Assembly (NCBI GenBank): GCA_000004985.1
Contig: GG739358.1
Source: Naegleria gruberi
Taxonomy: Eukaryota
Reading direction: 5' to 3' (one strand)
Length of the DNA: 1,645 nt
The notes under the pieces were generated by a model. The model searched no databases, was not told where the DNA came from, and worked only from the letters and a program-made list of their open reading frames with translations. Position 1 is the stretch's first letter. Each line of letters opens with the position of its first letter. A program made the position numbers and the translations under genes. Positions 1-1,645 of this stretch are shown here, in pieces.

Positions 1-1236
1 TGAGGATATCCATAAGGAAAATACATTATTCAATGCTTCCTTATTATGAAATACTTTATCTGATTCACAAGTATCAGTTAATAACAAGGTTTCCATTCCT
101 TTTTCAGTACTATTTGTCGTCAAATAATAATAAACATGACACGTATCATCTCTACTATATATAGTCTTGACATGATGTTGAAATAATTTCACATATCCAT
201 TTCCATCTTTTCTTTTTATAGATAATTCACAAACACTTCCTTGTGAATGATCTAATTTTACAGATGCCCAACTTGTAAATTTAACATTTTCATCCTTAAA
301 TAATTGTTTATAATTTTTCAATGTTTTTAAATTTTCATCTTCATCATCAATATAAAGATTCATCAGAGTGGAATGATTATTTGATATCAATTCATTATTT
401 AATATTTGTGCATTTAAATGAAGTATACATCCATTAATAAATTGCATGGTGGATGGTTTTGTAGATTTTTCACTTAAATAATTTTTAATTAAATTTTTAA
501 AGAGGAGAAATAGTTGAAATTGATATTTGCATTGATATTGTAAATGACTATTATATCCAATGTAGAGTTCATTGGTAAAAGCTGAATGAACAAGTCTAAA
601 TGATAATTGATCACTATTTGGTAAATACATGAAAATATTATGTAATATAATAGTATTTAACCATTTTGTAAAATGATAATTAGAATGTTGAATAATTAAT
701 ACATTAGTATTGATAGATTGTGTTGAACGTTTAGAATCATTCAATTTTCTCTTCTTTCTATGGCGTTGACTAACTTTGTTTGCATAATAATTCAAATCTT
801 TTTCTTCATCTTCATCTTCATCGGAATCTTCCTCATCTTCCTCATCGTCAGAATTTATACGACCTTTCTTTTCCAAATCATCATCTTCATCATCGGAATC
901 CTCTTCTTCATCTTCATCATCCTCATCCTCATAATAATCTGAATCATCATCTTCATAAGTATACAATTCCTTTCCATGTAATAATGCATTTCTAATTTTT
1001 TGAGCATCATCATCATCCCAATCCTCATATTCACTATTTTCATAATAGTGTTCGTCTGCATCAAGTAATATGCTCTCTAAACTTGATTCTTGCTCTTTTA
1101 ATTCCTTTTCCCATGATTTAATTTGTTCCAAGTTAACTTGATGGGATGGTGAATGTTCTGTTGTTTTGAAATGATCATACCAACAGGAATTGCCATATCG
1201 ACAACAACCTTGCAACCAATATCTACAAACAACCAT
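1..1236 (-). CDS. Partial CDS (N-terminal 412 codons; C-terminus beyond window start) encoding a CCCH (C3H1)-type zinc-finger protein with a long acidic D/E/S tract and a basic NLS-like cluster
   Basis: I translated the reverse complement codon by codon. ATG at 1236-1234 is preceded by A9 (AAAAAAAAATGG, A at -3 and G at +4). An in-frame TAA at 1245-1243 closes the frame upstream, so 1236 is the first possible start. The frame then has 412 consecutive sense codons to position 1 with no TAA, TAG or TGA. That is extremely unlikely by chance in ~72% AT DNA. The N-terminus reads MVVCRYWLQGCCRYGNSCWYDHFKTTEHSPSH... Codon usage (GAT, GAA, AAT, TTA, AAA) is coherent across the whole frame. The supplied ORF track omits it, presumably because no stop lies inside the window. 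Confidence 0.85.
   Translation of the reverse strand, partial: MVVCRYWLQGCCRYGNSCWYDHFKTTEHSPSHQVNLEQIKSWEKELKEQESSLESILLDADEHYYENSEYEDWDDDDAQKIRNALLHGKELYTYEDDDSDYYEDEDDEDEEEDSDDEDDDLEKKGRINSDDEEDEEDSDEDEDEEKDLNYYANKVSQRHRKKRKLNDSKRSTQSINTNVLIIQHSNYHFTKWLNTIILHNIFMYLPNSDQLSFRLVHSAFTNELYIGYNSHLQYQCKYQFQLFLLFKNLIKNYLSEKSTKPSTMQFINGCILHLNAQILNNELISNNHSTLMNLYIDDEDENLKTLKNYKQLFKDENVKFTSWASVKLDHSQGSVCELSIKRKDGNGYVKLFQHHVKTIYSRDDTCHVYYYLTTNSTEKGMETLLLTDTCESDKVFHNKEALNNVFSLWISS
745..765 (-). other. Basic cluster RHRKKRK (residues 158-164), candidate monopartite classical nuclear localisation signal immediately C-terminal to the acidic tract
   Basis: The translation is CGC CAT AGA AAG AAG AGA AAA, giving R H R K K R K. 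The K-K/R-x-K/R core is present. An acidic tract adjacent to an NLS is a common arrangement in nuclear and nucleolar proteins. Confidence 0.5.
796..1062 (-). repeat. Low-complexity coding repeat: imperfect (GAT/GAA/GAG)n trinucleotide tract encoding an acidic Asp/Glu/Ser-rich region (protein residues ~59-147) with CK2-type phosphoacceptor motifs
   Basis: On the + strand the tract reads (ATC/TTC/CTC)n at 800-850 and 877-950. On the minus strand it translates to ...YEDDDSDYYEDEDDEDEEEDSDDEDDDLEKKGRINSDDEEDEEDSDEDEDEEKD... The unit CATCGGAATC (GAT TCC GAT G, encoding D-S-D) occurs twice, at 819-828 and 889-898, which indicates an internal duplication. S-D-D-E and S-D-E-D fit the CK2 consensus S-x-x-[DE]. 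Confidence 0.8.
1171..1227 (-). other. CCCH (C3H1) zinc-finger motif coding segment, protein residues 4-22: C-RYWLQGC-C-RYGNS-C-WYD-H
   Basis: Direct translation gives Cys4, Cys12 (or Cys11), Cys18 and His22. The spacing C-x7-C-x5-C-x3-H matches the canonical C-x(6-14)-C-x(4-5)-C-x3-H consensus. The usual aromatic residues (Y6, W7, Y14, W19, Y20) and a Gly between the first two Cys are present. From memory, the placement at the extreme N-terminus resembles NUP42/hCG1-like proteins ([22 protein letters not shown]). The rest of the protein has no FG repeats. Confidence 0.8.
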
Positions 1237-1571: not shown

Positions 1572-1645
1572 ATGTCTGGTAATAACAAGAATACTGGAAA
1601 GACACAAAGGAAACAACACGCTGTATCATCTCCATCTCATCCTAA
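1572..1645 (+). CDS. Putative 5' end of a divergently transcribed gene (24 codons in window: MSGNNKNTGKTQRKQHAVSSPSHP..., continues past window end); product unknown
   Basis: ATG at 1572 has a purine at -3 (GAAATGTCT). The Met-Ser (ATG TCT) start is a common yeast-type context. The frame stays open to the window edge. It sits at the position expected for a divergent gene. Only 24 codons are visible, so the call is weak. Confidence 0.35.
   Translation, partial: MSGNNKNTGKTQRKQHAVSSPSHP

Follow-up and report, generated by a model that had tools for sequence, protein, structure and literature searches.

A lineage-specific Naegleria gruberi gene that combines a CCCH zinc finger and an acidic tract with a family core bearing a degenerate F-box-like motif

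Introduction

How can a gene of more than four hundred codons be absent from the list of open reading frames (ORFs) made from the very DNA that carries it, and what kind of protein does such a gene encode? The question is raised by a stretch of 1,645 nucleotides of Naegleria gruberi (contig GG739358.1 of assembly GCA_000004985.1), called the window below, for which 11 ORFs were mechanically listed. An initial annotation had pointed out a 412-codon gene on the minus strand that is not among them, and had described its product as an N-terminal CCCH finger, an acidic tract, a nuclear localization signal (NLS) and a C-terminal region of about 250 residues without known affiliation. The features discussed here are as follows, each with its basis in parentheses.

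1-1236, minus strand: coding sequence of 412 codons, 5' complete, 3' cut by the left window edge (translation and chance tests)
1234-1236, minus strand: start codon ATG (preceded by a run of eight A and an in-frame TAA)
1171-1227, minus strand: CCCH zinc finger C-x7-C-x5-C-x3-H, residues 4-22, CRYWLQGCCRYGNSCWYDH (Pfam PF18044, zf-CCCH_4)
799-1068, minus strand: acidic low-complexity tract, residues 57-146, 56% Asp/Glu with interspersed Ser and Tyr (composition scan)
745-765, minus strand: basic patch RHRKKRK, residues 158-164 (monopartite NLS consensus)
100-699, minus strand: family-homologous region, residues 180-379, including the F-box-like motif (phmmer and an HMM of the relatives)
559-663, minus strand: degenerate F-box-like motif, residues 192-226, WLNTIILHNIFMYLPNSDQLSFRLVHSAFTNELYI (Pfam PF00646 below its cut-off, and hhalign)
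1-99, minus strand: last 33 visible codons, residues 380-412, ending near the family motif PSEWNS (loose alignment to the relatives)

An open frame that runs off the window

Read from its ATG at 1236, the reverse complement of positions 1-1236 begins MVVCRYWLQGCCRYGNSCWYDHF in translation and meets no stop down to base 1, so that the missed gene is indeed there, and both peptide strings quoted for it occur in the translation. The reason that had been given for its absence from the ORF list also holds: the listing leaves out ORFs that run off an end, and this frame exits through the left edge with zero stops inside the window. The frame opens at 1242 and comprises 414 codons with the two Lys codons that precede the ATG; because an in-frame TAA lies upstream at 1243-1245, translation can start no earlier than at this ATG. 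The 412 visible codons show no sign of an intron.

Base composition gives a per-codon stop probability of 0.094, and therefore a chance of about 2e-18 for 412 open codons. The window was simulated 1000 times with a first-order Markov model, and the longest open frames so obtained had a mean of 78 codons and a maximum of 146; the remaining two minus-strand frames hold 23 and 71 stops. The GC content of the window is 28.5%, and that of its 335-base intergenic spacer is 30%, the same as in the coding part; the genome of Willaertia magna, a sister to Naegleria, has 25% GC (PMC6892926; PMC11702301). What the window contains is a real protein-coding gene of an AT-rich eukaryote, of which the first two-thirds are visible. 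Scans for Rfam families, tRNAs, tandem repeats, promoters and terminators returned nothing relevant in the window.

Might the frame nevertheless be no functional gene, namely a frame open by chance, a pseudogene, or a chimera of two genes made in assembly? The 3' end lies outside the window, and the N-terminal module occurs in none of the relatives described below, both of which such a reading could use. It is very improbable, as it has to account for a frame far longer than the simulated maximum (412 against 146 codons), for undisrupted family homology over 200 residues, for a finger with all four ligands intact, and for four ORF segments that share one stop-free frame on a strand whose other two frames are rich in stops.

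The N-terminal module

Residues 4-22 are a CCCH finger. In the full protein, they pass the PF18044 cut-off of 24.6 bits with 27.1 bits (E 3.3e-6), and when the finger is scanned alone its score rises to 30.8 bits. The profile by which the finger was originally to be checked, PF00642 (zf-CCCH), gives 17.9 bits with the full protein, below its cut-off of 20.5, and barely passes with 20.6 bits for the finger alone. The ligands are arranged as C4-x7-C12-x5-C18-x3-H22, within the C-x7-8-C-x5-C-x3-H spacing that defines these fingers, and aromatic residues (Y6, W7, Y14, W19 and Y20) stand between them as that definition also demands. It is reasonable to suppose from such a finger that the protein binds RNA; a lone finger of this type may also serve to contact proteins instead.

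The likeness to the N-terminal finger of NUP42 that had been noticed at first sight, together with the lack of FG repeats, is supported. Against the presumed N-terminal sequence of human NUP42 (hCG1, NUPL2), 11 of 22 residues are identical and 18 similar, and the spacing C-x7-C-x5-C-x3-H and the core LQG.CR.G..CW..H are shared. Both fingers lie at the extreme N-terminus, and the same two Pfam models rank top for both. Is the protein, then, a divergent nucleoporin of the NUP42/hCG1 type, with a pore-anchoring region behind its CCCH finger? Identity of 50% and similarity of 82% over 22 residues, the terminal position and the shared Pfam ranking are what this idea can offer, and its comparison sequence is the presumed one. 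FG, GLFG and FxFG each occur zero times in the 412 visible residues, the relatives have 0-2 FG dipeptides, and the region after the finger is unrelated to that of NUP42 and belongs to a different family. Membership in NUP42 was rejected because FG repeats are missing from the visible part, and a nucleoporin is the least probable of the identities weighed here. The C-terminal halves of the relatives had no match among the sequences of the PDB, which includes NUP42-Gle1 complexes. The nuclear-pore partner that NUP42 binds is Gle1 (PMC8311971); nothing in the window protein suggests such binding.

The acidic tract follows the finger where the initial annotation had placed it, and contains six CK2-consensus sites (S/T-x-x-D/E); residues 46-150 carry a net charge of -46. 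Its DNA contains GAT/GAA-rich repeats and has a GC1 of 0.65. Sub-threshold C/D snoRNA matches fall into this DNA and were rejected as compositional. The patch RHRKKRK, also found at its predicted place, fits the established monopartite NLS consensus K-K/R-x-K/R, and from its KKRK a nuclear location of the protein may reasonably be expected.

A small Naegleria family

Where does the remainder of the protein come from? Word-indexed protein searches with the full protein and with its C-terminal 243 residues gave no match, in the former case probably because the acidic tract swamped the query. In an exhaustive phmmer search of 1.84 billion representative proteins, four relatives were found, 23-32% identical to the window protein, with E-values of 1.2e-15 (the relative labelled P0001), 1.3e-8, 2.6e-8 and 1.1e-4. 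They are the predicted proteins XP_002672036.1 and XP_002669749.1 of N. gruberi, FDP41_006162 / CAG4713404.1 of N. fowleri, and a protein from a JGI metagenome (sample 3300002220); D2VVD5, D2W1Q4 and A0A6A5BKK2 are identifiers of Naegleria predicted proteins in the family. All four relatives are unnamed, match no Pfam domain and have no known function. An HMM built from the relatives alone matches residues 180-379 with 95.1 bits (E 2e-31 in a single comparison), and 19 columns are invariant across the five family sequences. The common motifs in this region are WLN..IFxxLP..LSFRLVNQ, HGCLL..NA.IRN, LFK.G.V.F..W, QGGRCE..I and QH..YGPN.R..YY. The relatives start with MKRK, and this basic KRK patch stands 23-32 residues before the WLN motif, a distance similar to that of RHRKKRK in the window protein.

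Thus the C-terminal region, which had been put down as uncharacterised, is part of a small family made up of Naegleria predicted proteins. A profile search after phmmer recovered no further members, and with only four relatives among those 1.84 billion proteins, the lineage restriction that the initial annotation had guessed at is upheld: the family is small, fast-evolving and restricted to Heterolobosea, and to date nearly all its members come from Naegleria. The match covers HMM positions 34-238 of 543, so that about half of the family architecture lies to the left of the window; the window edge corresponds to about HMM position 238-260, and the C-terminal half of the family takes up positions ~240-543. 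The relatives reach about 270-300 residues beyond the visible part, and their length suggests that the coding sequence probably runs on for roughly 250-300 codons past the window edge. The missing stop had been recognized correctly, while a continuation of this length had not been foreseen.

The window protein stands alone in the family with its CCCH finger and its long acidic tract, neither of which occurs in any relative. A CCCH pattern was also looked for in all frames of the metagenome contig and of the 3 kb preceding the N. fowleri copy, and none was found; the module of finger plus acidic tract is specific to the window gene. As a lineage-specific gene it is ordinary; its combination of domains is unusual.

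The patchy distribution invites another idea, that this is a gene or an insertion of a giant virus infecting Naegleria-like amoebae and that the Naegleria relatives result from exchange between host and virus. Low GC (28.5%), a long ORF without intron and the very patchy taxonomic occurrence would fit, and F-box-like proteins abound in giant viruses, a point that counts on the same side in view of the motif described in the next section. Among IMG/VR viral contigs, however, neither exact DNA nor peptide patterns matched and no relative appeared. The spacers of mimivirus-like genomes are short and very AT-rich, unlike the 335-base spacer, which is as GC-rich as the coding part. Moreover, the N. 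fowleri copy is an ordinary nuclear gene: it has an intron-sized gap, and its flanking genes encode guanylate cyclase, MAPEG and mannosyltransferase, which are housekeeping neighbours. A viral origin is accordingly improbable. In JGI metagenome contigs and GTDB prokaryotic genomes, the source contig and close relatives were not found.

A degenerate F-box-like motif and the predicted fold

The homologous region opens with a motif that was overlooked in the original account of the C-terminal region. Its likeness to the Pfam F-box stays below the cut-offs: PF00646 gives 14.7-17.5 bits (E 0.004-0.03) with the window segment and 13.8-18.3 bits with those of the relatives, all under the cut-off of 20.5, and PF12937 gives 9.7-12.6 bits with the window segment and the relatives against a cut-off of 24.3. 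Four of the five members have PF00646 as their top or only Pfam match, always over profile positions 4-32 of 43; for the N. fowleri protein, Pfam detects no F-box signal. When an alignment of the four member segments was compared by hhalign with ten F-boxes that pass Pfam, the probability was 71% (P 3.7e-5) over 26 aligned columns, and the score of 24.4 was reached in none of 300 column shuffles (maximum 14.8), with 0.3% for a reversed control.

The hydrophobic pattern of the first two helices of F-box proteins (PF00646 / PF12937), I/L-L-x-x-I-F-x-x-L-x-x-x-D/E-L-x-x-x-x-L-V, is also present in the window family. F-box proteins serve as substrate receptors of SCF ubiquitin ligases, but two of their hallmarks are altered here. 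The Leu-Pro dipeptide is replaced by Leu-Asn (L193-N194 in the extended hhalign register), of which the Asn is invariant in the family, and the match does not take in the third helix with its conserved Trp: the position of the Skp2 Trp is taken by F220 in the window protein and by I or L in the relatives. The segment may possibly dock to Skp1.

Structure prediction throws little light on the motif. With the five-sequence alignment, AlphaFold2 gave a pLDDT of 46.8 for the window C-terminal region, which is unusable, and 51.5 for P0001, whose core reaches 70-89; the F-box-like segment is below 50 in the models. At low confidence, residues 180-379 are predicted to form two long helices and an antiparallel sheet of five to six strands. 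Fold searches returned nothing significant, and no fold was assigned. A PDB sequence search with the full protein gave only weak CCCH and low-complexity matches, and one with the family profile gave none. In Pfam, zf-UBP (17-20 bits against 22.7) was rejected, as were CTHRC1_C, CDC45, Utp14, Torus and PV_NSP1, also below their cut-offs; these weak matches are due to Cys/His content or acidic composition.

It is a serious possibility, and one to which we give somewhat over a third of the weight, that the gene and its family are as described and the F-box likeness is incidental. On this view the gene would encode an acidic nuclear protein that binds RNA or associates with chromatin and is unconnected with ubiquitin ligases. 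The motif would be the first amphipathic helix pair of a family-specific domain, the finger would bind RNA, and the acidic tract would bind basic proteins such as histones or ribosomal proteins. Scores that never reach the Pfam cut-off, LN in place of LP and the N. fowleri member without a signal all agree with this, and so does a segment profile that recovered no F-box protein from PDB sequences, only two chance matches. The order of the charged parts agrees as well, since an acidic tract (net charge -46) followed by a basic patch is an arrangement common in nuclear chaperone-like proteins. What speaks for a true relationship is that four independent segments, 27-37% identical, all point to a single Pfam model, over identical positions, and to no other, and that the profile-profile score of 24.4 stands well above the maximum of 14.8 from 300 shuffles.

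A possible RNA-linked adaptor

What, then, might the protein do? Most likely it serves in the nucleus as an RNA-linked adaptor, with Skp1 as a possible docking partner. We tentatively favour, at somewhat under even chances, a genuine nuclear heterolobosean gene that arose by domain fusion and encodes an RNA-linked ubiquitin-ligase adaptor with Skp1 docking. In such a fusion, the finger, the disordered acidic tract of about 90 residues and the KKRK patch would have been joined to a core restricted to Heterolobosea, in which the degenerate F-box-like helix pair precedes a domain of helices and beta-sheet with an unrecognised fold. The basic patch would bring the protein into the nucleus, the finger would bind single-stranded RNA, the F-box-like segment would dock to Skp1 and hence to a cullin ligase, and the target would be bound by the domain specific to the family, of which the window covers one half.

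The logic of such an RNA-linked adaptor would be comparable to that of cyclin F-box protein 2 (CFB2) of Trypanosoma brucei, an F-box protein that associates with mRNA and binds SKP1 (PMC8051951). CFB2, which comes from a discoban protist, is a functional analogy only, and no sequence relationship to the window protein was detected. It lacks a CCCH finger and relies on an HDPY motif that binds MKT1, and its F-box retains the SKP1-binding residues, whereas the window family has lost the Pro. A broader proposal, that the whole heterolobosean family with its LP-to-LN change still consists of SCF receptors, one member of which gained a NUP42-type finger and an acidic tract, is unlikely. If true, there would be an E3-ligase adaptor steered by RNA recognition, by which turnover is aimed at particular nuclear RNPs, and a coupling of F-box and mRNA would have been invented independently of trypanosome CFB2.

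Conclusion

A gap in the ORF track has been corrected, in which a real gene of more than 412 codons had been missed for a mechanical reason. Fast-evolving, lineage-restricted genes like this one are many in protist genomes, and the wider significance of one more is modest. Still, a tiny unnamed family of Naegleria, the genus of the 'brain-eating amoeba', gains its first recognisable features, namely the basic patch, the F-box-like motif and, in this one member, the CCCH finger. If the link to Skp1 holds, the family would represent lineage-specific ubiquitin-ligase adaptors, and the window gene would be an RNA-coupled one among them.

An Open Reading Frame That Leaves the Window

The window contains 1645 bases with a GC content of 28.5%, and the initial annotation had claimed that its ORF track misses a long minus-strand coding region with a start but no stop inside the window. 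Both parts of this claim hold. The frame opens two codons before its ATG, after a TAA at 1243-1245, and the earliest possible start is the ATG at 1234-1236, immediately preceded by a run of eight A residues. From there no stop is met before base 1, and the frame of this gene (the CCCH gene) exits the left edge of the window. The mechanical ORF lister gave 11 short ORFs, among which the 412-codon frame is absent because the lister leaves out ORFs running off an end. Can such a frame stay open by chance? Over 1000 simulated sequences (first-order Markov), the longest frame free of stops had a mean of 78 codons and a maximum of 146, and composition gives a per-codon stop probability of 0.094, corresponding to about 2e-18 for 412 open codons. 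Four ORF segments are all without stops in this frame, and the other frames of the same strand contain 23 and 71 stops. Translation, simulations and stop counts thus place the open frame beyond chance; the gene is real, and a reading of the stretch as anything but a functional gene is very improbable. The features are as follows.

1-1236, minus strand: coding sequence of 412 sense codons, starting MVVCRYWLQGCCRYGNSCWYDHF (reverse-complement translation)
Residues 4-22, minus strand: CCCH finger, C-x7-C-x5-C-x3-H, with aromatics between the ligands
Residues 57-146, minus strand: acidic tract, 56% D/E
Residues 158-164, minus strand: basic patch, RHRKKRK
1572-1645, plus strand: open frame MSGNNKNTGKTQRKQHAVSSPSHP..., with its ATG at 1572, exiting the right edge

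With the plus-strand frame a neighboring gene, transcribed divergently, may begin; the frame has no Pfam match and is too short to be identified. Four copies of the hexamer TTCCGA, all in one orientation, lie at 1437-1533 on the plus strand (1437, 1466, 1500 and 1528; spacings of 29, 34 and 28 nt), with the extended consensus (A/T)TTCCGA(T/G)(T/A)TG. On both strands of the whole window six matches are observed against about 0.55 expected, and none of 200 shuffles reaches six. The four copies precede the ATG at 1572 by 39-135 nt and that of the CCCH gene by 200-300 nt. As a group they are a candidate promoter, or a candidate set of transcription-factor sites, for two divergently transcribed genes. 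A lone TTCCGA about 15 nt ahead of the ATG of an N. fowleri family member (locus L003, 7869) may be due to chance. The sole terminator-like hairpin in the window (1609-1633, minus strand; 11 pairs, three of them G-C, then a T-rich tail) falls within the possible plus-strand ORF and is most likely fortuitous, the scan consensus being bacterial-type and the sequence eukaryotic.

The Zinc Finger and the Acidic Tract

The CCCH finger at residues 4-22 had been proposed from the sequence, and PF18044 (zf-CCCH_4) matches residues 3-22 with an E-value of 3.3e-6 and 27.1 bits, above the curated cut-off of 24.6. The check with PF00642 was divided: the full protein scores 17.9 bits, under the cut-off of 20.5, while the first 55 residues scanned alone reach 20.6 bits (30.8 bits with PF18044). 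By these profiles it is a bona fide member of the CCCH class, in which fingers spaced like this one commonly bind RNA. Its noted likeness to the finger of NUP42 stands as a resemblance: 11 of 22 residues are identical and 18 similar to what we take to be the N-terminus of human NUP42, and the top two Pfam models are the same for both. Membership is rejected, since the 412 residues contain no FG dipeptide (the initial annotation had noted the lack of FG repeats) and all that follows the finger is part of another family; that the protein is a NUP42 is extremely improbable. A weak zf-UBP match (window 1111-1212, minus strand; residues 9-42; 17-20 bits, cut-off 22.7) covers the finger and the His-rich stretch after it (H22, H28 and H32). 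Cys/His composition probably accounts for it, though a possible ubiquitin link makes it worth noting.

The acidic tract, with six CK2-consensus sites, and RHRKKRK were likewise placed correctly at first reading, and the net charge over residues 46-150 is -46. Two ORFs of 60-73 codons, at 727-992 (plus) and 858-1076 (minus, other frame), lie antisense to or out of frame with this tract. They arise because its codon run is rich in GAT, GAA and GAG, of which the complements ATC, TTC and CTC make no stops, and are rejected as genes. Matches to C/D-box snoRNAs at 819-954, below threshold, come from the same composition.

A Small Family in Naegleria

Word-indexed searches with the window protein returned no relatives. 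An exhaustive phmmer search of 1.84 billion representative proteins, with residues 170-412 as the query, gave four (E-values 1.2e-15, 1.3e-8, 2.6e-8 and 1.1e-4).

XP_002672036, Naegleria gruberi, predicted protein
XP_002669749, Naegleria gruberi, predicted protein
FDP41_006162, N. fowleri
One protein on a 1965-base JGI metagenome contig (P0001)

Those of named organisms are all from Naegleria, and the relatives carry no protein name and no Pfam domain above threshold. Identity is 23-32%, between the window protein and the members and among the members, even inside Naegleria; therefore, the family is small and fast-evolving. An HMM made from the relatives only matches window residues 180-379 with 95.1 bits (E 2e-31 as a single comparison) at positions 34-238 of 543. 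Thus, the view that the C-terminal region is unassignable has to be given up, and on these alignments the family relationship holds. An alignment of P0001 with P0005, the fuller of the N. fowleri models, extends over about 500 residues, and the CCCH gene very probably runs on leftward by roughly 250-300 codons.

The N. fowleri copy consists of two called ORFs with a gap of 66 bases, consistent with a short intron. Its neighbors encode a guanylate cyclase, a MAPEG protein and a mannosyltransferase, and it is a normal nuclear gene. Gene models were compared at two N. fowleri loci (L002, 95-1978; L003, 8001-9707): XP_044559401 (P0004, 542 aa) is without a 47-residue segment, GIEFMDKLLSEFQDP..., found in CAG4713404 (P0005, 589 aa). 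Since this segment aligns with P0001 (EGIAFMDKLITTYD), the 589-aa model is probably the correct one.

Searches of IMG/VR, of JGI metagenome contigs and of GTDB genomes did not return the contig from which the window comes. In GC the window falls about 9 points short of the Naegleria-type loci L001 and L003 (both 37% GC), and the genome of Willaertia magna, sister to Naegleria, has 25% GC (PMC6892926; PMC11702301); a reasonable guess at the source would be a heterolobosean resembling Willaertia. Might the gene have come from a giant virus instead? Against a viral origin, no viral relatives were found among IMG/VR viral contigs, and the GC of the 335-base spacer is the same as that of the coding sequence. 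Such an origin is a minor rival and unlikely.

The CCCH finger and the long acidic tract are in none of the relatives. A scan of all frames found no CCCH pattern on the metagenome contig over its whole length or in the 3 kb that precede the N. fowleri gene, and P0001 has an in-frame stop 16 codons ahead of its start. Thus, the CCCH gene appears to consist of the family core preceded by about 157 further residues, the finger plus the acidic tract, a module that by these comparisons is unique to the window's gene. The KKRK patch (residues 161-164, window 745-756) lies 28 residues ahead of W192, and P0001 and another relative, P0003, begin with MKRK (KRK at residues 2-4), 23-32 residues ahead of the WLN motif that opens the core. 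The positions correspond, and since the three proteins have it in common, the NLS-like patch seems to belong to the family and not to the added module.

An F-Box-Like Motif

The core opens with W-L-N-x-x-(I/V)-L-x-x-(I/V)-(F/Y)-x-(F/Y)-L-(P/T)-x-x-(D/E)-x-L-(S/T)-F-R-L-V (window residues 192-226), which PF00646 (F-box) matches in the window protein with an E-value of 0.03. When the equivalent segments of about 63 residues were scanned alone, PF00646 came top in four of five members and was the sole family in three (E 0.002-0.056, all at profile positions 4-32 of 43). Against a reference of ten well-known F-boxes, each admitted only after passing Pfam's own cut-offs, hhalign gave the family segment a probability of 71% (P 3.7e-5, 26 aligned columns) and a score of 24.4; 300 column-shuffled controls reached 14.8 at most, and the reversed control had a probability of 0.3%. 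On the other side, the PF00646 scores of 13.8-18.3 bits are all under the cut-off of 20.5 bits, Leu-Asn stands in place of the hallmark Leu-Pro, its Asn invariant in the family, the third F-box helix has no match in the segment, the N. fowleri member gave no signal in the segment scan, and the segment profile found no F-box protein among PDB sequences. With evidence so mixed, the motif is called F-box-like and the protein is not filed in the F-box family. AlphaFold2, with five sequences only, gave a pLDDT of 46.8 for the window C-terminal region and 51.5 for full-length P0001, whose core (residues ~80-280) reaches 70-89; both models predict two long helices followed by an antiparallel sheet of five to six strands.

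A Possible Role

What could such a protein do? The KKRK patch would allow nuclear entry, the CCCH finger would bind RNA, the F-box-like helices would dock on Skp1, and the family-specific domain would bind the target. Put together, the protein may be an RNA-linked SCF adaptor, a proposal to which we give slightly less than an even chance. A precedent is trypanosome CFB2, an F-box protein binding SKP1 and VSG mRNA (PMC8051951). Its close rival, that the same protein works without any ubiquitin link, is also a serious possibility. The first interpretation was largely right, and its gene is real; the family, the F-box-like motif and the truncation are newly added. Protist genomes commonly contain lineage-restricted, fast-evolving genes that have accreted domains. 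The combination of CCCH finger, acidic tract and F-box-like core is new as an architecture, while its kind is not surprising.
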